DNA of 64,000 nucleotides, taken from contig JAJZJL010000004.1 of the NCBI GenBank assembly GCA_021810145.1, positions 3,849-67,848 on the forward strand, in the 5' to 3' direction. Below the pieces are notes generated by a model. That model made no database searches. It worked only from the letters and a program-made list of their open reading frames with translations, and was not told the DNA's origin. Below are positions 5,198 through 38,927 of this stretch, one piece after another (positions within the stretch are counted from its first letter, which is position 1; every line of letters begins with the position of its first letter). The position numbers and the translations under genes were made by a program. This DNA is from Planctomycetota bacterium. Its GTDB lineage: Bacteria; Planctomycetota; Phycisphaerae; WQYP01.

Positions 5198-7801
<2,604 letters not shown>

Positions 7802-8190
7802 TCAAAATAAGCCTGATTTTTCCGCTTTCCTCGCCAGGAAATAACAAAGTCAGTATACCGTAAAATCGGTAATTTTCCCAGCGCTAAATCAGGTTGAATA
7901 AAAATGCCCCGCTTTCTTCTGCCGGCAACTTTTTCAGCGACAGGGCTTGGGCGTTGTAATCAGGCGTGGATGCATCCGTACCGGGAAATATCACGGCTTT
8001 TCCGTTGCGCCGATATCCGTTCTACTTGTGGAAAATTCACTCGCTGGGGCCGAAATGTTAGTCGCCCGTTGGACCCCAATGGCCCGGATATGCCTTGCGA
8101 ATCATTCAAAAACCAGAATCATCTCAATGCGGTTGCCAAATCCGACGGCAATTCGAAATCATGGTCACTTGCCCAGCGGCTCCGCAATCG

Positions 8191-8517
8191 TATGGGTGAG
8201 CGTGGTTTGGCCGGCCTGCCGCGAACGCGGCAGGGTGACCGCAGGGAGCATGTGAGCAGTTTGGTCAACCGAGATTCGGCAATTTAGTGGAGCGTATAGT
8301 TCCGTTATTCCGCGATTCGGGAGATTTGCTCATTTAAATATGCAAGCCATCCTATTGATTGCCACTATTTGTCGCATAAGCCCTCAGATGCAGGCAAGCA
8401 TATCCTCAATGACGGCCTTTTGGCCCGCGCTTAAACTTGGTCTGCTGTGGCTTGGCGGCGGAGCGATTGGCCAGTCTGTTGGCGATTCCTTCATCAATCG
8501 CGGCGGCCAGGGCGTGC
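8191..8517. repeat. Direct repeat copy 1 (attL/attR-like), ~98% identical to 19818..20144
   Basis: Identical over ~325 bp except about five substitutions. Contains an orphan copy of the uvrB 3' end. Confidence 0.9.
8406..8517 (-). pseudogene. Orphan 3'-terminal fragment of uvrB (last 37 codons) inside repeat copy 1
   Basis: Minus-strand translation ends ...HALAAAIDEGIANRLANRSAAKPQQTKFKRGPKGRH, identical to the C-terminus of intact UvrB at 20033. Upstream of 8517 the reading frame is unrelated to UvrB. Confidence 0.8.
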
Positions 8518-9042
8518 CTCCTTCGCCGTCGGTGTGGCCTGCGGCCAGGCCCCGCAGGCGTTTTGTTGTCGGTAATGGCCTCTTGGTTTGCGACCGTTTT
8601 CCTTGGCGCAAGTGGGTGGCCAGCCGGCAGCCCGAAGGAGACCCGATGCGAAAAAATCATTTGCATCGTTGTGCATCCCGCACCGCGGCGATTTCGGGGG
8701 TTACGTCAGGTTTCCGGTGCCCCCGCTCAGTCCCCTCGGAAAAGCCAACATGTACGGGAAATAAAAAAAGTGATTTTCTGCTTGCTTTTTTGTTTTTTTT
8801 TTAGTGCTAGTATTACGTTAATGTGTTGATTTCCGCGAGATCATCAATCCCCATATCCTGCTGATCCGCGGGGATACAAAGCCGCATGTTTCGGCATGCG
8901 CGGCACCGCACTGCCGGAAGGCACATGTTAGAGGGCGAGGGTTTACATATATAGCCGCCGGAGAAATTCGGCGTGATACGCGTTGAAGCGTTTTTGTTGT
9001 TCGTTGGCCGCCGTTCGTTAACCATTGCGACTGCGTGGAGAC

Positions 9043-12000
9043 ATGAACAAACGAAGCAAAATCCTTCCCGTGATGGCAGTGGCCGTGGCGATAATTGGAT
9101 TATCGGTATGGGGATGGATTTCGTTGTTCAGCCCGGCTGGCAGAAAGTCTCCCGGTGCCGCCGGAAATCGGGGCGGCGTTGGAATGCAATCGCGGCCTTC
9201 CACGCCCGAGATGATGTCGCCCGCCGAAGTCGCCGCAATCAAGATACCCCGTGGCATTCACCTCGCCAGTTTGCCGTGGCCCTCCGGCGGTGAATTGCCG
9301 AAGGAATTTCACCTGGCGCAACTGCCCTGGCTGCATGACCGTGGCGCGGCGGATATCAGCCGGTTACACATCATTGCCTCTTCAGGCTATGGCACCGGTG
9401 CCTTGGCGAATCCGCTGCATTTAGTCCACCGGGCTTATGTGCCATGGCCGAAATTTCCCGGCTTGACGTTGCCAATAACGGGCAAATTCGTCACGGCCCT
9501 GTGCCGGGATAGTGCCGGAAATATCTGGATTGCCACGGAAGACCATGGGGTTTTTTGCTACAATCCGTCCGCGCCGAAGGGCAGACAGATTCAGCAGTTC
9601 ACCAGACAAAGCACCCATGGCCAACTGGGTAATAACAATATTTATGCATTAGCCTGTGACAACCACGGACGAATCTGGGCCGGCACGCTTAACCATGGTG
9701 TCAGCGTGTATAACGGCCGACGGTGGCAGGCTTACGACATGGTGCAAAATCCGACAAAGCATGTCCTGGCCGGGCCGTTGGGCGATCATGTATTTGCCCT
9801 GAAATTCGACACATTCACCAACCAGATGTGGATTTGCACGGAGGCGGGAATATCTATATATCAGTGTAATCAACGAGCAACGAGCAACGAGACGCTGCGC
9901 TCAACGAACAACGATACACGGCAGAAGCCAGGAGTTGGGAGTGGGCAGTTAGAAGCGCCTGGAAACGCTCCGCTTCGCAATTCCACTCCTGCAACCTATA
10001 ACCTGTCACCTGTAGTCTTCACTGCCGGCACCTGGCACTACCTGACACAGGCGGACGGTTTGCCCCAAAATCCCGATTGCATCGCGTTCAACCCAAACGG
10101 TACGGTCTACGTGGGCACGCAATGTGATGGGGTCGCCATTGCAACGGTCAACGAACAACGAGCAACGAACAATGGCCAGCATGGGAAATCGGGAGTTGGA
10201 GGTGAGAAGTTAGAAGTGTTCGCAAACGCTCCGCTTGCAAAGGCTACGCATCCCCGTCCACGAGTTCCTGGCTTTCATTCCGCCGTGTCCCATGTCACCG
10301 CTTTATCCTATAACCGGCCAGCCTCAGTCTCCGCCGCATATCAGTGGCGTGTTGTTACCGGCCCGTGGAAAATGCCGTTGACCGCCACAGGAAAGGGCCT
10401 GCCGAGCAATCTGATCAACGCCATTGTCTTTGAACCCAACGGCACGCTGATTGCCGGAACCGACGGCGGAATCGGGGTTGCAACCAATCAAAACGCAGCG
10501 TTCGATTCCTCCCCGGCGGATTGGACGTTTATGCGCGGCCGGGATCTCACCGCCAAAGTGGCGGGGTTGTGGCACCCACCCCACCATTGGAAGGCCCCAT
10601 CTCGGAAGGTGTTAAACACGCTGCCGATGGAGGATTACACAACAGCGTTGGCGATTACAGAGAACAGATTACAGGGGAAGACCAACTTATGGCTTGGCCA
10701 TCGGCGGCGCGGCGTTGATGTGTGGCAGTACAACACAGCAGGCAAAATAATCAAGCGCTGGCAAATCCACGAGCCGCAAATCGGCAATTATGTCACCTCC
10801 CTGCTGCCTCTGCCAGGCGGAGCCATGGCGGTGGGCACTTATGGCAAAGGGGCATCGATTATCATGCTGCCGGGGGCAAGTGATGCATGGAAAAATCCCG
10901 ATCGCACCGCCATCCAAACTCATGCGGCCCCCGGCTTTGCTGGGGCGAACGCTCCCACCACCGGGGGACAGGCGGTGCCGGATGGCACCCGCGCCATTCA
11001 CGAGCCCAAACCAGCGGCGGCACCCAACGTGCGGCAACTCGCCGCGTTGTACCAAAGCCTGCTGAAGAATCCTGTTTCGCAGCAAATGATCGGCCCGCCA
11101 GTTGTTCCGATTACCGATGACTGGCGAACCCAGGGAAGCTGGCTGGGGAGGTATGGAAGGTATTGGGCGTGCCTGTTTGCGTGCGGCATGCACGGAGGCT
11201 ACGATTTCGTGTGGCGGCCACGGAGCGTTAGGCTCCGCCATAGTGCAGCCATCGGCCCGCATCGCAGAACGGGCGATATTGTCCAATTCCACACCACGTG
11301 GCCTGCCAGTGCCAGGAAACGTGTGTTGGAGCTGCCCGAGGTGTATCTTGCCCAACGGATTTCCGCCCACAGGGCTAGCCGGAAGAAGGACCGAAGGGAA
11401 ACCGAGCTCGACGATCACGGCGAGACATACCCCTTGGATTGGCAGGGGCCCGGTTTATATGTCTATTTGCATATTCCGCCGGGGGCTTACACGCTGTCAC
11501 TTTATTTCTTCAATAAAGATGGCCATTCCGAGAACAACCGTGATCGCGATTATGTGGTTTCCATGATACCCGTGTCCGCCGGATACCATTTCGGCACCGC
11601 CTCCCGTCCCAACACCGCGCCGCTGGCGAAAATGCGGGGGATCAGCCAGAGCCGGGTGGTGAATTTCTGGGGCGGGGTGTGGAAACGCTTTCTGGTGCGC
11701 GGGCCGGTGAAGTTGGCGATTCGCGTCGCCAAAAATTATTCGTTCAACACCATTCTCCAGGCGGCGATGCTGGACCCGCTTTCGCAACACCCAGCCCCGT
11801 ACTACTATGGGTACGCAGCATGGCAAGCCCACGAAAGCCAGCGGGGAGCGTTCCGCGTTCGGCAGGCCTCTGCCTTGCGAAGCGGGCAATTCTCCGATGA
11901 TGCTCCCGCCAGCCAAGCCGTGTGGCATCGGCATCCTGCCGATGATCCAACAGTCAACACTGGCATAATGCGATCTCAGAACATCCTGAACCTCCTCAGT

Positions 12001-12462
12001 TTACTGGAACACCGCGATCCCGCCACTTGGGCGGCCGGCCAGCAATTAGCGTGCAGCATGATCCTGCGCTGGTGCGTCGCGCGATACGGAGCAATTCCAA
12101 AAAATCCACAGGCTGCGGGGGTCGCTGAAAAATGTTGCTACGCGCTGGATTTATTCCGCCGCTGGGAAGCACTGGAGAAATCGCGCGGTGTGCTGACTTC
12201 AAGGCAGATCGAAAAGGGGCTGCGGCTGGGTGTGTACGCCGCTTCCTTTGCCGGCCTCTCGTTCGGCTTGATTCGGTGGCGGACATCGCAGTTGCGCCAT
12301 CCGTATCGCGTGCTGAGCACGTCCCAGCGGCTGGATTCATCGTGGTGGCTGTTGGACGGGGGCGAAGGGGCTGGAGGCAACAGGGATCGCCGGCGTGGCA
12401 CTGGCGGCGGCGCGCCACGAAGCCGACCTGGCCCCCTCGGCGGGGAGATAAGACGGAAATGA
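9043..12462 (+). CDS. Large membrane-anchored/secreted protein with two-component-regulator-propeller (Reg_prop)-like beta-propeller repeats
   Basis: N-terminal hydrophobic anchor MNKRSKILPVMAVAVAIIGLSVWGWISLF. Repeated blades of the form GNIWIATEDHGVFCYNP / GRIWAGTLNHGVSVYNGRRWQAY / NQMWICTEAGISIY. Two in-frame low-complexity inserts. Gly/Arg-rich C-terminus. Start uncertain (TTG at 9025 or ATG at 9043). Confidence 0.5.
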   Translation: MNKRSKILPVMAVAVAIIGLSVWGWISLFSPAGRKSPGAAGNRGGVGMQSRPSTPEMMSPAEVAAIKIPRGIHLASLPWPSGGELPKEFHLAQLPWLHDRGAADISRLHIIASSGYGTGALANPLHLVHRAYVPWPKFPGLTLPITGKFVTALCRDSAGNIWIATEDHGVFCYNPSAPKGRQIQQFTRQSTHGQLGNNNIYALACDNHGRIWAGTLNHGVSVYNGRRWQAYDMVQNPTKHVLAGPLGDHVFALKFDTFTNQMWICTEAGISIYQCNQRATSNETLRSTNNDTRQKPGVGSGQLEAPGNAPLRNSTPATYNLSPVVFTAGTWHYLTQADGLPQNPDCIAFNPNGTVYVGTQCDGVAIATVNEQRATNNGQHGKSGVGGEKLEVFANAPLAKATHPRPRVPGFHSAVSHVTALSYNRPASVSAAYQWRVVTGPWKMPLTATGKGLPSNLINAIVFEPNGTLIAGTDGGIGVATNQNAAFDSSPADWTFMRGRDLTAKVAGLWHPPHHWKAPSRKVLNTLPMEDYTTALAITENRLQGKTNLWLGHRRRGVDVWQYNTAGKIIKRWQIHEPQIGNYVTSLLPLPGGAMAVGTYGKGASIIMLPGASDAWKNPDRTAIQTHAAPGFAGANAPTTGGQAVPDGTRAIHEPKPAAAPNVRQLAALYQSLLKNPVSQQMIGPPVVPITDDWRTQGSWLGRYGRYWACLFACGMHGGYDFVWRPRSVRLRHSAAIGPHRRTGDIVQFHTTWPASARKRVLELPEVYLAQRISAHRASRKKDRRETELDDHGETYPLDWQGPGLYVYLHIPPGAYTLSLYFFNKDGHSENNRDRDYVVSMIPVSAGYHFGTASRPNTAPLAKMRGISQSRVVNFWGGVWKRFLVRGPVKLAIRVAKNYSFNTILQAAMLDPLSQHPAPYYYGYAAWQAHESQRGAFRVRQASALRSGQFSDDAPASQAVWHRHPADDPTVNTGIMRSQNILNLLSLLEHRDPATWAAGQQLACSMILRWCVARYGAIPKNPQAAGVAEKCCYALDLFRRWEALEKSRGVLTSRQIEKGLRLGVYAASFAGLSFGLIRWRTSQLRHPYRVLSTSQRLDSSWWLLDGGEGAGGNRDRRRGTGGGAPRSRPGPLGGEIRRK

Positions 12463-12516
12463 AGGCGGTGTGTCGCCGCCTCGCGCGTGGTAAGCATTTT
12501 TCAGGAGTACTCGTTA

Positions 12517-12962
12517 TGGAAGCGACCAAGTTGGTAAAAATCACAGGAAAGTGCAGGGTGAGCAGGAGTTTGAGAGCACTCGCCATGGCGGCAGCCCTTG
12601 TGGCGGGATTTGCTGCATTAGGGGCGGGCGGAGGATTGCTGGTTGCACAATGCGAGAATGTTGGCATTCAGACAATTAAGGCCGGTACCATCGATCCACA
12701 CTATGAGACACTTATCGACTGCAGCGCCGATGGCTGGGTAACTTGGAACTGTAAGCAATCCTATTTTGTCGCGACCAAGGACTTTAACCAGTGTTGGGGA
12801 TCGGATTCGGGGTATAACTGCGTAAAGGATGGGAATCAGGGAGGGAAAGAATACTATGGCGGGACATGCAACGATTCCCCCCCCGGAGGGTGCAATGCAC
12901 CTGTAGCCAGTTATCCGACCAGCGTGCCCAACTTTGCGCTCCAGCACTGCACTGGCGGATAA
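12517..12962 (+). CDS. Small secreted cysteine-rich protein (10-11 Cys in ~105-aa mature part)
   Basis: Strong RBS aggag 8 nt before ATG 12517. Basic N-region plus hydrophobic stretch ALAMAAALVAGFAALGA. Mature part rich in Cys/Trp/Gly/Asn (CENVG...DCSADGWVTWNCKQ...NQCWGSDSGYNCVKDG...GGTCNDSPPGGCNAP...HCTGG). The longer track ORF from 12132 overlaps the preceding gene and is rejected. Confidence 0.5.
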
Positions 12963-13302
12963 AATACCCCGGGGCCGCGCACCAGTTGCCACGCAGCCCC
13001 GGCCGCACTGCGCTAAGCTTTTGCCCGGCGGGGACTGCGTCCTTGCTCGGCGGTGTGCAGCGCCTCGACGTGAGTGGCAATCGTGCGCATGGATCATGGC
13101 CTGGGTGCGGGGCCACGGATAGCTGGTCGGCGGCGGGCCGAATTTCCGCCACTCGCGGAATTGGAAGAAAATCAGGGACGCCGCAGCGAGTGAAATCGGG
13201 CCGCCGGAAACTCGCTCTGGCTCCCCTGCGTCGAGCGCTCCAGGGGCGGGCCTCTGGTGAGCGACCGTCTTTAGGTCATCGGTTTAATCGGAGGTAACTA
13301 AC

Positions 13303-14508
13303 ATGTGTGCCCTTAACTTGCTTCGCCCTGCATTGCTATCCGCGAACCGCTGTGTGCGGATCGCAGTTGCGGCTACGTTTATCTCGGCGGCGCTCTGGTG
13401 GTTCAACTACACTGCCATTGCCTCAGCATCGGGCCGAACCCTCGTCGCGGGCTCCCCCGCCGCCAGCCATACCCTCGCAGCGGCGCAATGGAAGTCCCTC
13501 CTGCGCGATGCGGCGAAGAGGATATCGACCTTGCGCCTGCAGGCGGCGTTTCGCCGCCAGCTCTACATCTCGCCCGCGGTGGCTCGGCAGCTCAAGGATG
13601 GGCTGGAGCGTGGGTTCCCAAATCAATCATTCAAAGATTTCCATCCTCGAGTTGGACGTGTTGTAAGATCGCAATTGATCCATCTTGACTGGGCAGTTGC
13701 CAGGGGGCTGGTCAATGTTCGGAGGATACAGACCGGCGGCGTGACGGCACTCGGCCCAAGTGGGAAGCTGCGGTCGGGGCTCACGCGAGCGTCGATTTGG
13801 GTCGTCGGTCGGCGGTTCTACTGGTGGGCGTATCCTGGCGGGGGTGTCTGGAACGTCTCGGTCGGACGGCGGAACGGTGCCTGGTTCACGGGGGCTTGGC
13901 CATACACATCCCGGGGCCTGGGCTTATTTGATATTTCCGTGTACTGGGTGCCGTTCGCGACGCCAATAGTGCCGGCCGTTGGGCTGACCAAACTGCCGTT
14001 GAGCTACCGCTTGGCCAGCCAAAAGATCGACTCATCCACCGGGCTTATCAGGCTAAGATACATCGAACTCTACGACGGGAAAGTTAACCGCGTGCCGGGC
14101 ATAGGGACCTGCGAGTACCTATACGTGCTCCGGCTGGCTGGTGGGTTGCAAATTTATCACAAGATATGGGAGGCCGTTGGCGGACCGAAAGGGACCATCC
14201 GGTTCTTCGAGGCTGACTTCAAGAAGTTCGTGAAAACCGGTGGAATTTGGTTCCCAACGCGCATTCGCGAACGCAACTGGCCTAACGGCGCGAAGCACGC
14301 CCAACCCGACGAAACGATAACGATAAAGCACGTCGTGGTTAACGGAAGCTTCCCGCGGAATACATTCCGCTACACACCGCCATTCGGGGCGATGGTCACC
14401 GACACGCGAACCAAGCATGCGAGCATTTATTTTGTCGGATCGAAAAACCCGAAAATTCCGCCAACCACGGTACCTGCGGTGGGAACCAAAAGGGGTGCCG
14501 GCAAATGA
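13303..14508 (+). CDS. Secreted hypothetical protein (Trp/Arg-rich), first gene of a translationally coupled four-gene operon
   Basis: ggagg RBS 8 nt upstream. N-terminal signal/anchor. No motif I can name with confidence. Stop overlaps the next start (ATGA). Confidence 0.45.
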   Translation: MCALNLLRPALLSANRCVRIAVAATFISAALWWFNYTAIASASGRTLVAGSPAASHTLAAAQWKSLLRDAAKRISTLRLQAAFRRQLYISPAVARQLKDGLERGFPNQSFKDFHPRVGRVVRSQLIHLDWAVARGLVNVRRIQTGGVTALGPSGKLRSGLTRASIWVVGRRFYWWAYPGGGVWNVSVGRRNGAWFTGAWPYTSRGLGLFDISVYWVPFATPIVPAVGLTKLPLSYRLASQKIDSSTGLIRLRYIELYDGKVNRVPGIGTCEYLYVLRLAGGLQIYHKIWEAVGGPKGTIRFFEADFKKFVKTGGIWFPTRIRERNWPNGAKHAQPDETITIKHVVVNGSFPRNTFRYTPPFGAMVTDTRTKHASIYFVGSKNPKIPPTTVPAVGTKRGAGK

Positions 14509-15620
14509 TACGACGACATTCTCTTCTGTTCTGGGTGGCGCTTGCTGTTGCCGCAACTTCTGCCGGAGCTTGGATGGTGCGGGCAATGTGGCCGGCGCCG
14601 GTGGCGGAATTCCTAATTGGCCAGCCGAGAAAGGTTGCGGCGGTGGCGATCAATTTTGGCAAGGTCTACTACGGCGAGCGGGCAACCCGCGAGCTAACGG
14701 TTGTGAATTCCTCCAGGCACCACCTCACGTTGGGTGAAAAGACGGGATGTGGATGCACGCGGATTAAGATACTCAATCCGGCCATTCCACCCGGCGGCCG
14801 GTCGGCGGTGCGGGTAAGCTATACCGGGATAGACCCAGGGCGGACCGGACCGGCAAGCCAACAATTCATCATTTTTGATAATGGCAAGAAGCTGATACCC
14901 GAACTCCGTGGGGTTGTCCATGCCGTTCTCGCTCAATCGCTTCGCTTCAACCGGACCGAAATCTCTTGGCGTAACCTTTCAGGCGAGCCTGCCCATGGCG
15001 GCCAAGCTGTGGTGGCCGAGAATGTTTCGGGTGTCCCAGCCAGCGTTGCGTGGAGCGCCGGTGGCGAAGGGCGGTTTTTCTCGATCGCACCGACATCCGC
15101 CGTGATCGCGCCCGGCGCGAGCGTGAGGTTCCTGTTTCGGCCGTCGAGGGCGATAGCTGCAGGGCACCGGTCGGAGGCGGAAGCGATCGTGCTTCGGGGA
15201 ACCCTCCAATCCAACGGGAGGCCCGTACGGCTCAATTTCACGTTCGACGCCTACGACACGCTGGAGCCAGTTTTGGAGGCAATTCCTGGGGCTCTGGTGC
15301 TATCACCAAGGCCGGGTGTCCGCTTGGTTTCGGAGGTTGTCCGGCTCGTAACGGGGCCGGGAAACGGGAAGGTACCGCACGTGCTTGCGGTGGCGACCAG
15401 TAGCTCCGCACTTCACGCCGTCCGGGAGGATGGAGGGAGGATTTTGGTTTCGCTGCACCTGCCACACGGCCAAGTGGCCTTTCTGGGTAATGTCCGCGTT
15501 ACGTATGTTTATGGCGAGGCCAGGTCAGCCTTGGACATCCCCGTTTTTGCGGCCCCGGGTCTATCCGTTCCGCGGCAAACTCGTCCCTCGCCAGTGCGGG
15601 CCGATGGAGAACAGGAATGA
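14505..15620 (+). CDS. DUF1573 domain protein (Ig-like, GCGCT motif), secreted
   Basis: Signal peptide. Segment FGKVYYGERATRELTVVNSSRHHLTLGEKTGCGCTRIKI matches the conserved SCGCT core of DUF1573. ATGA overlap with flanking genes. Confidence 0.55.
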   Translation: MIRRHSLLFWVALAVAATSAGAWMVRAMWPAPVAEFLIGQPRKVAAVAINFGKVYYGERATRELTVVNSSRHHLTLGEKTGCGCTRIKILNPAIPPGGRSAVRVSYTGIDPGRTGPASQQFIIFDNGKKLIPELRGVVHAVLAQSLRFNRTEISWRNLSGEPAHGGQAVVAENVSGVPASVAWSAGGEGRFFSIAPTSAVIAPGASVRFLFRPSRAIAAGHRSEAEAIVLRGTLQSNGRPVRLNFTFDAYDTLEPVLEAIPGALVLSPRPGVRLVSEVVRLVTGPGNGKVPHVLAVATSSSALHAVREDGGRILVSLHLPHGQVAFLGNVRVTYVYGEARSALDIPVFAAPGLSVPRQTRPSPVRADGEQE

Positions 15621-16738
15621 CTGCGACCCTCCAGCGCGTCCCCACCCCCGCCAGCGGTGAGGAACTGGCTCCGGCGAACCGTGCGGGCGAGAGCCGGGAA
15701 CGGCGTGGGTTGCCGTGCGTCGTCGGCACGACCGTGCTGGCGGCTGCCGCGTTAAAGTCATGGGGATTTGACCTCTTGCCCCTCGCCCACGGAAGCCCCG
15801 CTCTGGCGGCCATCGGGCCAGCGTCGCTGATCGCCTGGGAAACCTTCCTCGGCCTCTGGCTCCTCAGCGGTACCTTACCAACCGCGGCGCGGCGGGTGGC
15901 CATTGGCTGTTTCGGCGTGTTTGCTTGTTATACCTTTTATGAAGCGCTCGCCGGAAAGGCTGATTGCGGTTGCTTTGGGCAGGTGCATGTGAACCCGTGG
16001 TTGACATTTATCCTTGATGTTTCAATTGTGCTGGCGCTTACGTTCCTTAGGAAACCTGACGCCCGCAAGGTTCCGCCCTCCCGATGGGCGCAACGGAAAT
16101 GGCCGGTGGCCGCTGCGGCGGCAATCGGATTGCTGGTCGGGGCTACCGTGGCCATGCTGCATCCGAAAGTTGTTGCCGCCGCCAACGGCCTGGCTTCCGC
16201 AGACAATGGCAGAATTGTCATTCTGGAGCCGCACCAATGGCTGCACCACCGCCTGCCGGTGCTGAAACATATCGTAAGCCAGCGCAGCAACAGGTCACTG
16301 GGCCGACAATTGGCAACCGGCAATTGGGTCATCATGTTCTATCATGCCAGTTGCGAAGAGTGCCGGCACACCATTCCCATTTATGAGAATCTCGCCCGGC
16401 AGAATGCCGCATCCGGCACTGACACGCACGTCGCCTTTATCCGTGTGCCACCGGATTTGACCGGGCTCGGCGCGGCAACCGGCTCCGGCACGGCGGGCCC
16501 GCAAATATTCCACGCCAGTCCCGCGCTGCATGGAAATTTGGACAACAGTCATCAGTGGTTTGCCACAACGCCGGCGGTCATGCAACTGAGAGACGGAACC
16601 GTGCTCCGCGCCGCCACGGGCAGCAGGGCAATGAATTTGAAGTGGCTTGGTACAACGGTTACCGGCCAGGGGCCGGGAATCAAAGAACAATGGCCAGAAT
16701 ATAAGGACGATGGCGTAAGCGATGGTCGCAGCAGTTGA
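15617..16738 (+). CDS. MauE/DoxX-like membrane domain fused to thioredoxin-like (MauD/TlpA-like) CxxC domain; putative periplasmic thiol-disulfide oxidoreductase
   Basis: N-terminal multi-TM region with the MauE-type CGCFG motif (AGKADCGCFGQVHVNPW). C-terminal thioredoxin-like segment with CEEC active-site motif (WVIMFYHASCEECRHTIPIY). Confidence 0.55.
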   Translation: MTATLQRVPTPASGEELAPANRAGESRERRGLPCVVGTTVLAAAALKSWGFDLLPLAHGSPALAAIGPASLIAWETFLGLWLLSGTLPTAARRVAIGCFGVFACYTFYEALAGKADCGCFGQVHVNPWLTFILDVSIVLALTFLRKPDARKVPPSRWAQRKWPVAAAAAIGLLVGATVAMLHPKVVAAANGLASADNGRIVILEPHQWLHHRLPVLKHIVSQRSNRSLGRQLATGNWVIMFYHASCEECRHTIPIYENLARQNAASGTDTHVAFIRVPPDLTGLGAATGSGTAGPQIFHASPALHGNLDNSHQWFATTPAVMQLRDGTVLRAATGSRAMNLKWLGTTVTGQGPGIKEQWPEYKDDGVSDGRSS

Positions 16739-17879
16739 AAAATCTCGAACTCAAGGCATTGGCATGGAACACGCTCGCTTCATCCGGCCTCCGCGTTGCG
16801 CCAGGTCCCCGCAGTGCCCAATGGCCGCACAGGTAATCCCGCTTGTGCCCGTGAGCCAAAACCCTCGGCGCAGGGTGCCTTATTATTCCAACGCCTACGT
16901 CCCTGGTTCTGCCTTCTCGCCTGGTGCCTTCACCATCATTGAACTGCTGACGGTGTTATCCATCATCGCGCTGTTGATTTCCCTGCTGCTTCCGGCGCTG
17001 GCCAAGGCCCGACAAAGTGCCGAGGCGGTGGTGTGTGAAAGCAATATCCGGCAACTGCTGACCGGATTGCGCGAATATGTGCAGACGAACAAGGGGCTTT
17101 TTCCGCTCAACGGCATTCTGTTTCCGCATGTGGCCATGTTTCCGCCGTATTCCGATGCCGCTGGCGGTGCGGACTACACGCTCCAGCAGGTGTGGGGTAC
17201 CACCGCTGATTACAATCTTTATTATGGCGCGTTATATCCGTTCATGGCGGGGATTCCCCAGGCACCGCCCGTGCCTGATCTGCTGAATTCCAGCGGCCCC
17301 AATACAGGCAACGGCGCGGCGGCCACGTTGAATCTCAATCCGGAGCGCAACAGGTTCGCCCGGGTTTTCATGTGCCCGCTGGACAGCGGCCTGCGTTCCG
17401 GCGCGGATGCCCTCCGCCTGGCCCCCGGTGGACGGACGGTTCTGGTCGGCGCGGGTTCCGGGGGCGGATTCTGGAGCTATTCGATCAATGCGCTGTTGAA
17501 TTCCCAAGCCGGGGTGTTGGCGGATATCTATGGCACGGGTGCCGGTAACAGTGCCCGCTTTCGGATCCCGTGGTCCTATCCCCTGCGTGACGCCACGATC
17601 ACCAATCCGAAGTGTGTGGTCTTCATTGAAGAATCAGCCCGGAAATCCCCGTTCAATGACGAAGTGATAGATCCGGCCGGATACGAGGATCGGGATCATC
17701 TTTCATCGCGGCACGGCGGCGGCGGCAATCTGGGCTTCTGGGACGGGCATGTGGCGTGGATGTCGCAGGTGGAATATTCTTCGGTGCCCGATCCGACGCG
17801 CAACGCGTCCGGCCCGGCAGCTCTGGCGGTGGCCATGCAGTGCCCGGTCTTCCGAATGTTTATCCCTGACGCGCGATAG
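16722..17879 (+). CDS. Prepilin-type N-terminal cleavage/methylation domain protein, DUF1559 (H-X9-DG) family
   Basis: Type IV pilin-like leader/hydrophobic segment G|FTIIELLTVLSIIALLISLLLPAL. C-terminal exact H-X9-DG motif (RHGGGGNLGFWDGHVAWMS). Start codon uncertain: the long N-terminal extension overlaps the previous gene. Confidence 0.65.
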   Translation: MVAAVEKSRTQGIGMEHARFIRPPRCARSPQCPMAAQVIPLVPVSQNPRRRVPYYSNAYVPGSAFSPGAFTIIELLTVLSIIALLISLLLPALAKARQSAEAVVCESNIRQLLTGLREYVQTNKGLFPLNGILFPHVAMFPPYSDAAGGADYTLQQVWGTTADYNLYYGALYPFMAGIPQAPPVPDLLNSSGPNTGNGAAATLNLNPERNRFARVFMCPLDSGLRSGADALRLAPGGRTVLVGAGSGGGFWSYSINALLNSQAGVLADIYGTGAGNSARFRIPWSYPLRDATITNPKCVVFIEESARKSPFNDEVIDPAGYEDRDHLSSRHGGGGNLGFWDGHVAWMSQVEYSSVPDPTRNASGPAALAVAMQCPVFRMFIPDAR

Positions 17880-17975
17880 GGATGCGGCCGGTAGGGCGGG
17901 CAACGTCGAGCGCGTATGACAGAGCTTGGGCGAACGCCCGATGACAATGAGAAACGCAATGAAAGGAGTCAGGCT

Positions 17976-18815
17976 ATGAGAACAGGTACCGCTGCCGCGT
18001 TCATCGTCATTCTGTTGCTGTCAGCCCCCGGCATCGCGGAAGGTGCGCATTCGCCTCCCGCCAAAGTGAGCCTGCAGCAGGCCTTCCGCCGGATTGACGC
18101 GGAACTCGCCTCTCCGCCACCAGCGCGGAAGGCGGAGTTGGACATCCGGAACATGGTGAAAGGCCATAGCTTTCAGTGCCGTTTTCTGCTTGCGAGCCGC
18201 TGGCTTCCGGCGTTGATGTTAAAAAAGCAATACCCGTTTGTGGCGCAGCTTTCAAAGCGGGAAATCCTGGTCATCCCCCACCGCACCAGAATCATTCAAC
18301 AACTCCTGGCGCTGCGTGTGGAGGCGCTTCTGGGCATGGGAAAGCCAAAGAAAGCGATGGTATGCGCGAAGGAGCTGTTTAATTTCTGTACCATGCGGGA
18401 TACGGCCCGGGCGTTGGCATTGGTGGCGCGGTGTCTGGCGTCCGCAGCGCCTGATGCCGCGGGGGCGATCCGACGATTTAAACGCGAAGAGATCGCCGGG
18501 GCCGCTCTCCCCATTGCTGGATATCCCGCGCTGGGATGCCCGATTCTGGCGGCCGTCAAGGCCGGGGATGGGGCGTATGCGCGCCGGGCATGGGGAATTA
18601 CCGGCCAGAGCTATAGTGATCTGTTTGACCACGGCAATCTGTTGCTTCTCGCTGGAAGGCCACGTGAGGCGATGGCGTGTTTTAATGCGGCCTATCTGGT
18701 AGCCGGCAATTACGGGCAGGTGGTACGCGCGGCCGGCCGTATCGCGGCATGCATCAAGGCGGAAGATGGAACCATTGGCAGGGCCAATGCCTGGGCACGC
18801 GGAGCCGGCCAATGA
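17976..18815 (+). CDS. Secreted helical (TPR-like?) hypothetical protein, paralog A
   Basis: aaaggag RBS. Signal peptide MRTGTAAAFIVILLLSAPGIAEG. C-terminal block ...CIKAEDGTIGRANAWARG shared with the next gene. Confidence 0.45.
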   Translation: MRTGTAAAFIVILLLSAPGIAEGAHSPPAKVSLQQAFRRIDAELASPPPARKAELDIRNMVKGHSFQCRFLLASRWLPALMLKKQYPFVAQLSKREILVIPHRTRIIQQLLALRVEALLGMGKPKKAMVCAKELFNFCTMRDTARALALVARCLASAAPDAAGAIRRFKREEIAGAALPIAGYPALGCPILAAVKAGDGAYARRAWGITGQSYSDLFDHGNLLLLAGRPREAMACFNAAYLVAGNYGQVVRAAGRIAACIKAEDGTIGRANAWARGAGQ

Positions 18816-18927
18816 CCGGATTTCGGGGGCTCGGATCCGAATTGTGCCATGTTGCAGATGAAGGCGGCGTTCCCGGCGCGTGCACCGATTGGCCAAAGCC
18901 GCGGAGGCGCTGCCGATAAGGAGTTGA

Positions 18928-19818
18928 ATGATGCGAATCAAGGTTACAGCAGTCTTTACGGTGTGGCTGGTGGCCACCGGTCTGGCCGCCCCGGAACTGA
19001 CGGCTGTGCCACCGGCCACGGCCCGGCCCAATGCGGCGGAGTTGCGGAGGCTCGCCTGGGCCAAAGGCTTGGTTCCGCGGTTGGCCGGCGCGGGTGCCGC
19101 CGCCCGTAAAGCGGCGTTGTCACAGATTACCTGGGAGCTGCGGACCCAACCGTATCCGACGGCACCGCTGGTATACCAATACTGGCTGCCACCGCTGATG
19201 GATCATGGTCATTACCGCGCTGTGGCAAACCTGGCGATGCGAGGTATTCTCGCGGCACCCGCATATACATTCGCCATTGATCGTCTGCTGGTTTTTCGGA
19301 TTCAGGCGTTGGCGGCAATGCATAAAAACGCGGCGGCCCTTCGCGACGCCAAGAGCCTGTTCGACGTATGCCGAATGCAGGATACCGGAACCGCACTGCT
19401 GATTCTGGATCAACGCCTTGATGCGGTGTACCGCAAGCATCCCAATATCGTGCGGCGGTTTGTGCTGGAGGAACGGTCGGGAGCAAAAATGCCTTCGGCT
19501 GGTGGCGGGCCCATCGAAAGATCCCGTGTGCTGGCGTCGATTCAGGTTCACGCCGGTCCCTACCTGGCAAGGCTGAAAGCAATCCACAGCACCGGGTCGT
19601 CCGCTCTGATGGAGAAGGGGGATTTATGGCTGCTGGCGGATCAACCGGCCAAAGCGCTGCGATGTTTTCAATCCATGGAGGCTTATGCGAAAACGTCGCG
19701 GCAGTTGCTGTTGCTGGAGAGATTTATCTGTCGGGCGATCAGGGCGGAGGACGGCACGATTGGCCGGGCCAACGCGCATCTTCTACGGGCGATTCAAGGT
19801 GCAACCCACCCGCAATAA
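18928..19818 (+). CDS. Secreted helical hypothetical protein, paralog B
   Basis: aaggag RBS. Signal peptide MMRIKVTAVFTVWLVATGLAAP. Shares ...RAIRAEDGTIGRANAHLLRA with paralog A and overall collinear similarity. Its stop codon abuts repeat copy 2. Confidence 0.45.
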   Translation: MMRIKVTAVFTVWLVATGLAAPELTAVPPATARPNAAELRRLAWAKGLVPRLAGAGAAARKAALSQITWELRTQPYPTAPLVYQYWLPPLMDHGHYRAVANLAMRGILAAPAYTFAIDRLLVFRIQALAAMHKNAAALRDAKSLFDVCRMQDTGTALLILDQRLDAVYRKHPNIVRRFVLEERSGAKMPSAGGGPIERSRVLASIQVHAGPYLARLKAIHSTGSSALMEKGDLWLLADQPAKALRCFQSMEAYAKTSRQLLLLERFICRAIRAEDGTIGRANAHLLRAIQGATHPQ

Positions 19819-20144
19819 ATGGGCGAGCGTGGTTTGGCCGGCCTGCCGCGAACGCGGCAGGGCGACCGCAGGGAGCATGTGAGCAGTTTGGTCAACCGAG
19901 ATTCGGCAATTTAGTGGAGCATATAGTTCCGTTATTCCGCGATGCGGGAGATTTGCTCATTTAAATATGCAAGCCATCCTATTGATTGCCACTATTTGTC
20001 GCACAAGCCCTCAGATGCAGGCAAGTGTATCCTCAATGACGGCCTTTTGGCCCGCGCTTAAACTTGGTCTGCTGTGGCTTGGCGGCGGAGCGATTGGCCA
20101 GTCTGTTGGCGATTCCTTCATCAATCGCGGCGGCCAGGGCGTGC
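19818..20144. repeat. Direct repeat copy 2 (includes the functional 3' end of uvrB)
   Basis: ~98% identical to 8191..8517. Covers uvrB codons 20033..20144 plus 215 bp downstream of uvrB. Confidence 0.9.
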
Positions 20145-22192
20145 TGATGTTCCGCATCTTGTTGTGCGGTTTCCGGCGTGCCCCCCTCAGGTGGCGTTGC
20201 CGATGAGCTTTGCCGCGCGGCGTTGAGTTCCTTGATTCGATCCCGTAAATCCGCAGCCTTTTCAAATTCCAGATTATTGGCGGCGGCCAGCATTTCCTCT
20301 TCCAGCATCCGGATCATTTCCTGCTGGTCAAACTCGGATTCAGATTCTGAGAGCATTTCCCGCGCCGTGCGGCGGGCTTTGAGTTCCAATTCAATGCCGT
20401 GTCGAATCGCCTTTTGGATTGTCTGCGGCGTAATTCCGTTGGCGGTGTTCCACGCTTCCTGAATGCTCCGCCGTCGAAGCGTCTCATCAATGGCCCGTTG
20501 CATGGCCGGAGTTGTTTTATCGCCGTAGAGAAAAACCTTGGCATCCACATTCCGGGCGCAACGCCCGATCATTTGAATCAGCGATGTTTCACTGCGCAAA
20601 AAGCCCTGTTTGTCCGCATCCATGATGGCCACCATCGAAACTTCCGGCAAATCCAGGCCCTCACGCAGCAGATTTACGCCAATCAGGCAGTCAAACGATC
20701 CTTCCCTCAGTTCCCGCAATATATCAATGCGATCAAATGTTTGTATTTCGCTGTGTAAATATTTACAGCGCAAGCCCGCCTGCCCCAGATAATGTGACAA
20801 ATCCTCGGCCAGGCGCTTGGTCAGCGTGGTTACCAGTGTTCGCTGGCCTTTTTGAGCGCGAACTTTGGCTTCTTCAAGTAAATCAGCCACCTGTCCCTGG
20901 GCGGGGCGCACTTCAATAAGCGGGTCCATCAGGCCGGTGGGGCGGATGATCTGCTCGACCACCTCGCCGGCGGTAAGTTCCAGTTCGTATTTCGCCGGTG
21001 TGGCGGATACAAATAACACCTGATTCCACATGCCCGCAAATTCCTCAAATCGCATCGGGCGATTGTCCAATGCCGAGGGCAGACGAAAACCGTGCTCCAC
21101 CAGTACCTCTTTGCGGTGACGATCGGCGGAATACATCGCGTTGATCTGCGGAATCGTAACATGCGATTCATCAATCATCAGCAGATAATCGTTCGGAAAG
21201 TAGTCAATGAGCGTTGATGGCTTTGCTCCCGGCGGCGAGCCGGAAATATGCCGCGAATAATTTTCAATCCCCTGGCAGAATCCCGCCTCCCGCATCATTT
21301 CCATATCATATTTGGTGCGCGCAAAGAGTCGCTGGGCTTCCAGCAGCTTGCCCTGCTGCCGCAATTCGCGGCAGCGCTGCTCGAGTTCCTGCTGAATATC
21401 ATGCACCGCCCTTATCATGGTCGAGTCATCGGCAACATAATGCTTGGCGGGGTAGACAAAGGCGGTCGTTTCTTCCGTGAGCCGCTCACCACTCACGGGG
21501 TGAATGTGCCAGATCGATTCAATTTCGTCACCGAACATTTCCAGGCGCAGGGCTGTGATTTCATAGGCGGGAAATATTTCAATCACATCGCCGCGCACCC
21601 GGAACGTTCCACGCTTAAATTCAATGTCATTACGCTCATATTGCACATCAACCAGCGCCCGCAGCAGTTCTTCCCGTCCCATCACCGCCCCGCGCTGCAG
21701 GGAAATAACCTTCTTTTTATACTGTTCCGGTGAACCCAAACCGAAAATACAACTCACCGAGGCTACAACCATCACGTCGCGCCGGCTCACCAGCGCGCTG
21801 GTGGTTGCCAGACGCAGGCGATCCAGATCGTCATTGCGGGCGGCATCTTTTTCAATGTAAATATCGCGCTGCGGAATATAGGCTTCCGGCTGATAGTAAT
21901 CGTAGTAGCTGACAAAATAATTCACCGCATTGTGCGGCAGAAGTTCCCGGAACTCCTCGTAAAGCTGGGCCGCCAGTGTTTTATTATGGCTGATTACCAG
22001 AACCGGGCGGTTGAGTTGCGCCGCAACATGGGCCATGGTAAATGTTTTGCCTGATCCGGTAACGCCCATGAGCACTTGGTATTTTTCACCGCGTTGAAAC
22101 GCTCGCGTGATCTTTTCAATCGCCTGCGGTTGATCACCGGTGGGCTTGAAGGGGCTTTCGATTTTATATTCCTGTACGGGCATTGTTTCCAT
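20033..22192 (-). CDS. uvrB: excinuclease ABC subunit B
   Basis: N-terminus FKPTGDQPQAIEKI. Helicase motifs GVTGSGKT and DESH. UvrC-interaction coiled coil AADLRDRIKELNAARQ. Unusually long (~55 aa) C-terminal tail, whose last 37 aa are encoded inside the repeat. Confidence 0.95.
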   Translation of the reverse strand: METMPVQEYKIESPFKPTGDQPQAIEKITRAFQRGEKYQVLMGVTGSGKTFTMAHVAAQLNRPVLVISHNKTLAAQLYEEFRELLPHNAVNYFVSYYDYYQPEAYIPQRDIYIEKDAARNDDLDRLRLATTSALVSRRDVMVVASVSCIFGLGSPEQYKKKVISLQRGAVMGREELLRALVDVQYERNDIEFKRGTFRVRGDVIEIFPAYEITALRLEMFGDEIESIWHIHPVSGERLTEETTAFVYPAKHYVADDSTMIRAVHDIQQELEQRCRELRQQGKLLEAQRLFARTKYDMEMMREAGFCQGIENYSRHISGSPPGAKPSTLIDYFPNDYLLMIDESHVTIPQINAMYSADRHRKEVLVEHGFRLPSALDNRPMRFEEFAGMWNQVLFVSATPAKYELELTAGEVVEQIIRPTGLMDPLIEVRPAQGQVADLLEEAKVRAQKGQRTLVTTLTKRLAEDLSHYLGQAGLRCKYLHSEIQTFDRIDILRELREGSFDCLIGVNLLREGLDLPEVSMVAIMDADKQGFLRSETSLIQMIGRCARNVDAKVFLYGDKTTPAMQRAIDETLRRRSIQEAWNTANGITPQTIQKAIRHGIELELKARRTAREMLSESESEFDQQEMIRMLEEEMLAAANNLEFEKAADLRDRIKELNAARQSSSATPPEGGTPETAQQDAEHQHALAAAIDEGIANRLANRSAAKPQQTKFKRGPKGRH

Positions 22193-37609: not shown

Positions 37610-38050
37610 TTAGTTTTTATCAAATTGCTTTTTCAGATAATCAATTACTTCCCAGCGTTGTTTGCGGCTTAAGGCGTCGCGAAAGCTGGGCATTGGACTG
37701 TGCCCATGCGTGATTTTCCAGAAGATCGCCCCTTCTCCCTGCGACCAGAAGGATGCGGTGGTCAGATTCGCCGGGTGCGGGCTTAAAAACGCTCCTGTCG
37801 GTCCATCGCCCGTTCCGTTGGATCCATGGCAGGCTTCGCAGTTGGCCGCAAACAGACTGCTGCCAGCATGGATGGAAGCGGCGGTAATGGGGACCGGGTT
37901 GGCTTTGGAGGCAGCCGAGGCCGGTGCGCGCCACGAATCCACACGGTCAAGTTGCTTCCGGATTGAATTCACATTCAAGCCCGCCGCCAGTGACACACCG
38001 ACTATGCTGGTTAAACCGCCAACTGCTAACATCATACGTATCCGATTCAT
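37610..38050 (-). CDS. Class I c-type cytochrome (paralog 1)
   Basis: Signal peptide. CEACHG heme motif. Shares GDGPTGAFL.PHPAN...FWKITHGHSPMPSFRD.LSRKQRW with the ORF at 38493. Confidence 0.65.
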   Translation of the reverse strand: MNRIRMMLAVGGLTSIVGVSLAAGLNVNSIRKQLDRVDSWRAPASAASKANPVPITAASIHAGSSLFAANCEACHGSNGTGDGPTGAFLSPHPANLTTASFWSQGEGAIFWKITHGHSPMPSFRDALSRKQRWEVIDYLKKQFDKN

Positions 38051-38492
38051 CGCAACTGTGTCCTTTCTTACTAATCGTTTTCCGCGGCATTTGTATCGAG
38101 CATTCGGGAGATGATCGTGAAACATTTCACAAGTCGCAACATCTTGCCACGAACGCTTCCGCGTTATTTATGTGCGTATCATCGTAAAACTCGGAAATAA
38201 AAAAAATCGGGACTTATCCGCGACGGCATGTAAGGAATTATTCTCAACCGCTTGTAGGGATTTATCCAAGGGGGTATAAGATTTTCACCTATGAACGTGC
38301 ATAATCATATTGATTTTACTGATGAAAAATTGGTTGATCGTTGCGGTCGCAACGGCCGGGCATGAGAAAAAGTGAATTGTCGATACCTTGAACGATGTTG
38401 TGCCAGTCGCGATAGTATGACCATTGTAAACGATCCAACGCATGAAGCGTTGGCAGATGGTATGATGGTAAGAGAAACTGGAGACTCAATCG

Positions 38493-38927
38493 ATGCTGTT
38501 AAATGTATCAAAAGCTGTGGTGGTTGTTATCGGTGCCGCTCTTTTGGCCGGTAGCGGGAAGACGGTGATTCCCACGGCTGGTACACCGGTGGAGTTATCG
38601 AGTTGGAACGCTCCGCATTCGGCATGGAAGAAGAAAAATCCCATTCCCATGTCGGCCGCTTCGATTCAAGCCGGGCAGGCAATCTTTTCACAGAATTGTG
38701 AAGCGTGCCATGGGGCCGACGGCAAAGGGGATGGGCCTACCGGAGCGTTTCTCAACCCGCATCCGGCGAATTTCACCAAGGCATCATTCTGGGCGCAGAC
38801 GGATGGAGCAATATTCTGGAAAATTACCCATGGGCACAGTCCAATGCCGAGTTTTCGTGATTCATTGAGCCGTAAACAGCGTTGGAACGTCATCAACTAC
38901 ATGCGGCATGCATTTGATAAAAAATAA
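38493..38927 (+). CDS. Class I c-type cytochrome (paralog 2)
   Basis: Signal peptide. CEACHG motif. About 80% nucleotide identity to paralog 1 over the C-terminal half. Oriented divergently from it. Confidence 0.65.
   Translation: MLLNVSKAVVVVIGAALLAGSGKTVIPTAGTPVELSSWNAPHSAWKKKNPIPMSAASIQAGQAIFSQNCEACHGADGKGDGPTGAFLNPHPANFTKASFWAQTDGAIFWKITHGHSPMPSFRDSLSRKQRWNVINYMRHAFDKK

Follow-up and report, generated by a model that had tools for sequence, protein, structure and literature searches.

How can a block of genes that brings no recombinase of its own come to lie between two copies of the end of a housekeeping gene, and what becomes of it afterwards? We address this question for a locus in which a cassette of eight genes, all on the plus strand (11.3 kb between the repeats), separates gyrB from uvrB. 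The locus lies in a 64,000-nt stretch, here called the window, of a Planctomycetota bacterium (Phycisphaerae; WQYP01; assembly GCA_021810145.1, contig JAJZJL010000004.1, positions 3,849-67,848 of the forward strand); all coordinates below refer to the window, and L-numbers denote related loci on public contigs. The cassette is bounded by a long direct repeat with two novel joints, is foreign in composition and exists in mosaic variants; close relatives have the site empty in a pattern that does not follow their phylogeny, and no recombinase is found in the 64 kb. We think it probable that a fragment of a mobile element was captured here once, with duplication of 320 nt of the target, and that general homologous recombination now removes it, transfers it and changes its make-up.

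The direct repeat and its two joints

In an ungapped comparison 8192-8517 matches 19819-20144 (offset 11627) over 326 nt with seven mismatches, located at 8197, 8236, 8294, 8317, 8377, 8399 and 8400. All of these are non-coding, and the 117 nt from 8401 to 8517, which include 112 coding nucleotides, are identical between the copies. A repeat search of the whole window finds exactly these two copies. The first six bases of the right-hand match (ATGGGC, 19819-19824) are cassette sequence: related cassettes elsewhere carry the same six bases, and position 19824 is C in every uvrB-proximal copy examined and T in every gyrB-proximal and every empty-site copy. The duplicated host segment therefore measures 320 nt with six mismatches (8198-8517 and 19825-20144). 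The features at the two ends of the cassette are as follows.

8182-8197: native chromosomal sequence CCGCAATCGTATGGGT that adjoins the duplication; 7+5 nt match the cassette end CCGCAAT-AAATGGGC
8198-8517: R1, the copy of the 320-nt host duplication that lies nearer gyrB; empty sites have this segment once
8406-8517 (minus): orphan uvrB tail within R1, the last 36 codons plus stop
8517-8518: J1, the left novel joint, GGGCGTGC / CTCCTTCG, at which uvrB codon -37 is joined to cargo
19824-19825: J2, the right novel joint, ...CAATAAATGGGC / GAGCGTGG..., at which the cassette is cut 6 nt past the c8 stop
19825-20144: R2, the uvrB-proximal copy, with the functional uvrB end, its 3' flank and a GC hairpin at 19843-19863

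R2 supplies the functional end of uvrB (last 36 codons and stop, 20033-20144) together with ~210 nt of 3' flank. R1 lies upstream of gyrB, 432 nt from its ATG, and the translation of its orphan tail ends in ...HALAAAIDEGIANRLANRSAAKPQQTKFKRGPKGRH, identical to the C-terminus of UvrB, and diverges past 8517. The frame upstream of this tail is not conserved, as a 1-nt indel is present in L103 and L104. Much of this arrangement had been described in an earlier note made from the letters of the window. Its direct repeat of ~325 bp is borne out and can now be placed and refined to the base, as is the orphan tail that leaves the UvrB frame just beyond 8517; the repeat is not a dispersed sequence unrelated to uvrB either (two copies in the window, one per empty-site locus). 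Some details need correction. About five mismatches had been counted instead of seven, and the part supplied by the second copy had been given as 37 codons and 215 bp. The right repeat was thought to begin exactly at the stop codon of the last cargo gene: the c8 stop (19816-19818) does directly precede the 326-nt match, but the host duplication itself begins 6 nt later.

At the outer end of each repeat copy (8216-8236 and 19843-19863) lies a strong hairpin (CCTGCCGCG..CGCGGCAGG), with z = -3.3 on the uvrB strand and no T-run. Possibly it terminates uvrB; since the insertion, a copy of it is also situated immediately downstream of c8.

The right joint was placed by comparison with relatives. 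Past the c8 stop, all related cassettes read ...CCGCAATAAATGGGC followed by CTTTGG..., the window reads ...CCGCAATAAATGGGC followed by GAGCGTGG..., and R1 as well as every empty site reads ...CCGCAATCGTATGGGT followed by GAGCGTGG.... The related cassettes L105 and L097 remain 89% alike for ~225 nt beyond the J2 point, and therefore the cassette in the window is truncated at J2. Judging from these alignments, J2 arose illegitimately in a single event and represents neither a conserved element end nor a canonical attachment (att) end. The patch of 7+5 nt shared by cassette end and chromosome is a microhomology whose anchored score is equalled in 96 of 20000 random pairs (0.5%, p ~0.005). Conserved ends such as attP arms were not found: relatives extend past J2, 8518-8720 is missing from L105, and the repeat alleles are of host type. 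The cargo ends show no terminal inverted repeats (score 8.0 against a random mean of 7.8). A by-eye look for a dif/Xer-like site in the repeat gave only an AT-rich near-palindrome, situated in the stretch that is least conserved in L103.

Occupied and empty sites in one population

Contigs of the same population (~20) were retrieved by exact-protein look-ups with GyrB and UvrB from metagenome-assembled genomes (MAGs) at NCBI, MEGAHIT assemblies at ENA and metagenomes at JGI; the exact GyrB protein of 853 amino acids (aa) is present on 24+ public contigs. Eight assemblies (L002, L003, L004, L006, L008, L009, L011 and L110) have the empty site that the earlier note had looked to for support, in which uvrB, one repeat copy and gyrB follow each other with no scar. 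Their flanks are 99.2-99.8% identical to the window. The cargo is carried by L005, L007, L010/L001, L109 and L111. Among the MAGs, GCA_027428715.1 and GCA_027436315.1 are occupied, and GCA_027428695.1, GCA_027428655.1, GCA_027429835.1 and GCA_027436335.1 have the empty site; the source metagenomes include the runs behind ERZ27237xxx and JGI 3300033990 and 3300010386. The 11.3 kb is therefore a genuine presence/absence polymorphism that has the repeat as its end-points.

The occupied genomes fall into at least two lineages that are not sister to each other, lineage A (the window, L005, L007, L010/L001 and L109) and lineage B (L111; the contigs L112-L114 group next to it), separated by 55-64 single-nucleotide polymorphisms (SNPs) per 9.2 kb of uvrB-side flank. 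On this flank the empty L003, L008 and L009 are just 26-34 SNPs away from lineage A, and the empty L002 falls inside that lineage (6-10 SNPs; 4-10 over all comparisons). Overall, empty-site genomes lie within 0.3-0.7% of occupied ones. Occupancy thus does not follow the backbone tree, which requires at least two events of gain, loss or transfer, all with the same end-points. Among the lineage-A genomes there are zero SNPs across 7.7 kb of cargo. Two uvrB SNPs near the repeat (20255 and 20267) were considered as markers of co-transfer with the island and rejected, because the empty L003 has the uvrB allele of the window.

Each difference between R1 and R2 is also a polymorphism of the population, empty sites included. 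The R1 haplotype of the window equals that of the empty-site L002 and its R2 haplotype that of the empty-site L004/L006; the R2 of L111 resembles the repeat at the empty sites L011 and L110. Even the near-clonal L005 and L010 (1 SNP in 7.3 kb of flank) differ at five repeat sites in R1, where L005 has R2-type alleles. As repeat alleles segregate at empty sites, both copies are sequence of the host population and not a diverged replacement 3' end borne by an element. The allele pattern looks like the outcome of gene conversion or crossing-over among copies and strains. Four independent contigs (L112-L115; MEGAHIT k141, lineage B or an intermediate backbone) end exactly 141 nt into the repeat, which corresponds to window position 20004. 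These stops imply that both uvrB-to-repeat and cargo-to-repeat paths exist in those samples, with R1 and R2 identical over at least 140 nt.

Other occupied loci carry variants of the cassette. The cargo of L103, from another JGI sample, is 88% identical in c1 and 94% in c5-c8, whereas its c2-c4 module is of a different type, that of L105: the middle genes encode 107, 309 and 365 aa (L103:3822-6802) against 148, 401 and 348 aa in the window (12230-15825). Over 4 kb L104 matches the window at 99.4%, but in the 5' part of c1 the identity is at most 93.5%. Nonetheless J1 is identical in L103 and L104, and J2 is identical in L103 and L111. In the assemblies used, the host flanks of L103 and L104 break off at the repeat, as does the gyrB-side flank of lineage B. 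Diverged variants with the same joints indicate that the insertion happened once; a recent one-off capture within this population was rejected as a candidate, as the diverged L103 and L104 share joints. To judge from these mosaics, the cargo later exchanged modules with related cassettes while its insertion site stayed fixed. The 117-nt block of the repeat that codes for the UvrB end remains 99-100% conserved, in L103 as well, where the flank next to it has diverged by ~6%. The L103 contig is a circular permutation of repeat plus cargo, with both ends inside the repeat and a 16-nt overlap. It was rejected as proof of a circle: an assembler that re-enters a collapsed repeat would produce a contig of this form equally well, and 16 nt is not among the usual k-mer sizes.

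Further afield, the nearest outgroups (UvrB at most 77% identical) have neither gyrB nor cargo near uvrB, and a UvrB scan of genome contigs yielded no conspecific. The duplicated uvrB tail occurs in 0 of 5 outgroup uvrB loci. In one Phycisphaerae outgroup (L016:13535-13650) the uvrB 3' flank recurs in inverted orientation (119 nt, 82%), 1.4 kb downstream of the gene. Scans of metagenome contigs with the c3 protein and with the exact 21-nt J1 pattern gave no matches.

The cassette, its relatives and the flanking genes

The GC content of the cargo is 59.6%, against 53.5% for the rest of the window. Mean GC at third codon positions (GC3) is 0.66 against 0.58, with seven of the eight cargo genes above every host gene, and the 11.3 kb windows that overlap the cargo have the highest tetranucleotide deviation in the stretch (0.24, median 0.12). 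The cargo is compositionally foreign and in our reading horizontally acquired. Its open reading frames (ORFs) give no match to integrase, recombinase, transposase, phage or defence families in Pfam, NCBIfam, PADLOC and PHROGs. Nor was any such gene found elsewhere in the 64 kb window, and no recombinase adjoins the uvrB site in the ~20 related loci. The mobility proteins encoded at related loci (integrase, excisionase and recombinase fragment) have no tblastn match in the window, and the ~20 related loci plus the 5 outgroups hold no cognate autonomous element or integrase at the uvrB site. The cassette is composed as follows.

8518-8720 (plus): left cargo end, ~200 nt without counterpart in the related cassette L105, with a terminator-like hairpin and T-run at 8537-8569
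8721-9042 (plus): cassette leader, conserved and non-coding, 85% identical to L105
9043-12462 (plus): c1, large beta-propeller protein (Reg_prop) with N-terminal anchor; pipelines call ATG 9184; hypervariable at ~9867-10686
12516-12962 (plus): c2, 148 aa, N-terminal hydrophobic segment, no family match
13303-14508 (plus): c3, 401 aa, no family match, 95% identical to a gene in the larger L097 cassette
14574-15620 (plus): c4, DUF1573 / Ig-like protein
15617-16738 (plus): c5, MauE/DoxX-like membrane protein (BT_3928-like) with membrane segments
16875-17879 (plus): c6, pseudopilin-like DUF1559 protein with prepilin-type N-terminus and C-terminal H-X9-DG; longest ORF from 16722
17976-18815 (plus): c7, secreted, 279 aa, paralogue of c8
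18928-19818 (plus): c8, secreted, 296 aa, all-alpha helical-repeat protein of a very small family

Signal or anchor peptides are present in c1 (from ATG 9043), c2, c7 and c8, which, together with the prepilin N-terminus of c6 and the membrane segments of c5, confirms the secreted and envelope repertoire announced in the earlier note. Likewise its visual impression of a raised GC content inside the island, and its statement that the block encodes no integrase, recombinase, transposase or phage gene, agree with our measurements and family searches. The cassette probably specifies an envelope or surface structure, to which we assign no particular role. In c1, variants that elsewhere agree at 94-99% of positions show 30-90 differences per 100 nt in hypervariable, indel-rich stretches (~9867-10686), a pattern suggestive of exposed loops that are diversifying. 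The terminator-like GC hairpin with T-run at 8537-8569 (plus) lies 20 nt inside the left joint, and a transcription unit of the donor context may have ended here, at the left end of the cargo. The idea that 8518-8720 is a diverged uvrB remnant of an earlier host was rejected, as tblastn with UvrB gives no match there.

The paralogues c7 and c8 share 32-37% identity. The c8 family is small (26 clusters at E <= 1e-3 in 5.8 billion proteins), and c8 was not found in plasmid and phage collections. Its AlphaFold model (predicted local distance difference test, pLDDT, 86.6) points with confidence to a secreted all-alpha solenoid of helical repeats, for which the PDB offers no informative neighbour (best match E = 0.046, template modelling (TM) score <=0.33).

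Through c8 homologues, related cassettes were found in three other genomic contexts. In L094 an HTH_17 excisionase-like gene and a tyrosine integrase are found downstream of the cassette, and the 3' end of the integrase overlaps a tRNA-Met; an integrase that abuts a tRNA is the classic arrangement of an island. Here 2 kb without a called gene and a small ribbon-helix-helix (RHH)-like ORF (6304-6576, minus) intervene (L094:6727-8365 region), and the other island end lies beyond the contig. In L105 the cassette is situated between a serine-recombinase fragment ('Recombinase' domain) and a ParA-like gene. The third context (L097-L099) has a larger version that adjoins aconitase. There, c3/c4-like genes are duplicated (L097:1-10894, also L098-L100; 300-nt direct repeat, 72%), beside an NHL-repeat protein and the aconitase. 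With relatives beside mobility genes, the cassette family apparently travels on mobile DNA, and what lies at uvrB is a piece of such DNA that lacks the mobility module.

The two core genes that flank the site are the following.

5198-7759 (minus): gyrB, core gene at one side of the site, 853 aa from ATG 7759; Pfam DNA_gyraseB, Toprim, HATPase_c and GyrB_C
20033-22192 (minus): uvrB, intact, 719 aa, confirmed by Pfam

For uvrB there are three in-frame candidate starts (GTG 22201, ATG 22192 and ATG 22183), and public pipelines are split between 719 and 716 aa, the latter from ATG 22183. Outside the cargo the 64 kb consist of housekeeping genes, and Rfam matches are limited to tRNA-Ala. The only other long repeat in the window, an inverted repeat of 234 nt (75% complementary), is accounted for by two convergent paralogous genes for small cytochromes c with a CEACHG haem motif, in a low-GC stretch (37610-38125, minus, and 38493-38927, plus).

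Origin and persistence of the island and comparison with known systems

The founding event was probably the single capture, downstream of uvrB, of a piece of a larger mobile element via the illegitimate joints J1 and J2, by which 320 nt of host DNA (the uvrB tail and its 3' flank) would have been duplicated. A circle that had acquired the host segment could have entered in a Campbell-type manner. Alternatively, a template switch could have been primed at the CCGCAAT..ATGGG microhomology, which sits at the very point to which a new strand that had reached the end of the cassette would need to return and anneal before copying the segment a second time.

Once in place, a cassette that has no mobility machinery of its own depends for its fate on the general homologous recombination of the host. 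A stretch of 320 nt at 98% identity far exceeds the minimum substrate for RecA-dependent recombination. Crossing-over between the two repeats would delete the cassette precisely and leave one copy behind. Recombination in the flanking core genes, or re-entry of an excised circle through the repeat, could move it between backbones, and recombination between related cassettes could swap internal modules. The expected outcome is one natural population in which an envelope-protein cassette varies both in presence and in allele.

Several points weigh against this account. The route from a single event to a 320-nt target duplication is a conjecture, and the later pathway is read from population patterns; as the sequence seen comprises 64 kb, an integrase acting in trans from elsewhere in the genome is conceivable. 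A repeat-bounded island of Escherichia coli without recombinase, H47, moves independently of RecA (PMC3191183, PMC5426353), and by this precedent RecA may be the wrong enzyme to name. Some of the mosaic repeat haplotypes could be chimeras between copies that arose in short-read metagenome assembly. The empty L002 differs from the occupied lineage-A genomes at 20255 and 20267, and hence is not a simple deletion derivative of the occupied genomes sampled. Finally, the outgroups, in which the synteny of uvrB and gyrB is not kept, do not fix the direction of the events or the ancestral state.

Of the other explanations, the most familiar would take the repeats as attL and attR of a non-autonomous site-specific element, similar to a cis-mobilizable element (CIME) or to H47, for which a recombinase or host function encoded elsewhere excises a circle and re-integrates it at the uvrB 3' end. 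Direct repeats at the 3' end of a conserved gene that is thereby restored, the precise one-copy empty site and the presence of the island on two backbones all suit this idea, as do the relatives beside int and xis at tRNA-Met and beside a recombinase fragment, the strongly conserved 117-nt coding block, and the circularly permuted L103 contig with its 16-nt terminal overlap. The 13 kb H47 island, moreover, is known to excise and integrate with no recombinase of its own (PMC3191183). Yet neither the 64 kb nor the surroundings of the uvrB site in ~20 related loci contain a recombinase, and the related integrase of L094 targets tRNA-Met instead of uvrB. J2 is no conserved element end, relatives running on for 225 nt, and both repeat copies have ordinary host alleles with no element-specific arm. 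Known att identity blocks are far shorter than 320 nt. The ends of L103 are equally explained by a collapsed repeat, other contigs stopping ~140 nt into it, and none of the five outgroup loci has a duplicated tail. We therefore regard this explanation as doubtful. It is somewhat harder still to believe that repeat plus cargo (~11.0 kb) constitute a mobile circle without recombinase, which would use the 320-nt uvrB 3' end as a homology 'attP' in a RecA-driven Campbell cycle between lineages. If true, such a cycle would be a reversible on/off switch, at the level of the population, for a diversifying envelope-protein cassette, and the circle would owe its mobility, in minimal form, to nothing but a stretch of housekeeping gene taken from the host.

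A static insertion would be simpler. One ancient event would have left the repeats as inert by-products, the empty lineages would never have had the cassette, and its non-monophyletic distribution would stem from recombination of the flanks. The shared joints do indicate one founding event, the flanks are indeed mosaic (L115 is intermediate, and a recombination tract lies at 905-929), and the lineage-A cargo is free of SNPs over 7.7 kb. However, cargo variants that share the joints are modular and up to 12% diverged, while empty genomes are only 0.3-0.7% from occupied ones. The insertion is accordingly older than the divergence of occupied from empty genomes, and at least some of the empty sites are secondary losses, or the island has moved between backbones. 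With the empty L002 inside the occupied lineage A as well, we judge a static insertion to be quite improbable. That one of the two configurations results from the repeat having misled short-read metagenome assemblers seems hardly credible. Several contigs break within the repeat, which does show that assemblers have difficulty here. Both configurations nonetheless recur in independent assemblies (NCBI MAGs, ENA MEGAHIT k141 and JGI), contigs cross both joints, and empty-site contigs carry flank haplotypes of their own. Furthermore, the longest identical stretch between the copies in lineage A (117 nt) is shorter than k = 141, so that k141 contigs cannot jump from one copy to the other.

Capture of a fragment followed by homologous recombination also sorts the proposals of the earlier note. 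Its attL/attR pair, made by site-specific integration of an element with a replacement 3' end of its own, does not stand, given the host-type repeat alleles and the truncation at J2. A decayed island that lost its integrase fits the origin, as the cassette relatives lie beside int and xis at tRNA-Met and beside a recombinase fragment, and precise RecA-mediated deletion between the repeats is the best fit to the present-day dynamics. Mobilisation in trans is less probable; no positive evidence for it was found.

Compared with established classes, the locus has the repeat, the restored gene and the empty site of a self-mobile site-specific integrative element, but it is not one, having no integrase of its own and no conserved ends. 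Nor is it a transposon or insertion sequence (IS)-type insertion: transposase and terminal inverted repeats are absent, and a duplication of 320 nt is not short. Phage 21 and e14 in icd and Salmonella genomic island 1 (SGI1) in trmE (general knowledge and PMC8409611) similarly keep their target intact with a copy of its 3' end at one junction and leave an orphan 3' end at the other. In those cases the replacement end is diverged, belongs to the element and is used by the element integrase, whereas here it consists of host alleles and no integrase is present. With CIMEs and decayed integrative elements (ICEberg 2.0 concept, PMC6323972) the locus shares direct repeats at the 3' end of a conserved gene, the absence of recombination and transfer genes from the cargo, and cargo relatives beside integrase and excisionase genes. 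CIMEs, however, keep the att sites of a cognate integrative and conjugative or integrative mobilizable element (ICE/IME) at the same site; none was seen at uvrB in the related loci examined, the cargo joint is a truncation, and host sequence of 320 nt takes the place of a short att core.

For the founding event only, homology-facilitated illegitimate recombination (HFIR; PMC3240628) and Campbell-type insertion may serve as models. The former joins at microhomologies and the latter duplicates a homologous host segment on both sides of the insert, but HFIR combines one homologous with one illegitimate joint and usually produces no 320-nt duplication. Regarding the uptake of DNA, natural transformation is not known for this organism.

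Closest are two kinds of island. Like flexible genomic islands, the locus has a fixed site between core genes, presence/absence and alternative modules at >99% identity, envelope cargo and deviant composition, and it qualifies as one. Such insertions can be removed by recombination with empty-site DNA (PMC4795794). Flexible islands usually lack long flanking direct repeats, however, and the 320-nt duplication here adds an intramolecular route to precise deletion. The H47 island (PMC3191183, PMC5426353) is similarly small (13 kb against 11.3 kb here), has extensive imperfect direct repeats and no integrase or excisionase of its own, is matched by single-copy empty sites in related strains (some of those for H47 being hybrid between the repeats), and moves or is lost via host functions. 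By these features our locus appears to be of the H47 type, with the restriction that excision and integration have been demonstrated experimentally, and as RecA-independent, for H47 only, while the present locus is known from sequence alone. It differs also in cargo and phylum, and in its repeats: those of H47 are dispersed att-like sequences of many pathogenicity islands, those here a piece of a housekeeping gene with its flank that occurs once per empty genome.

The case carries a caution, in that a gene 3' end at both junctions need not be an att pair made by an integrase; population alleles and a truncated cassette end favour illegitimate capture followed by homologous recombination. With base-exact occupied and empty alleles available, it is a cleanly resolved natural example in uncultured planctomycetes of how a stranded fragment of a mobile element may stay dynamic with no recombinase, because host DNA remained on both sides of it as long direct repeats when it inserted. 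Its secreted and anchored proteins make up a rare, modular cargo, and the swapping of modules at one position is what would be expected for surface structures under diversifying selection from phages or predators, and such loci are poorly described in this phylum. Overall, the locus belongs to the known class of recombinase-less, repeat-bounded accessory islands. What distinguishes it is that its repeats consist of 320 duplicated nt from the 3' end of a housekeeping gene, and that the population data show repeated use of the same end-points.

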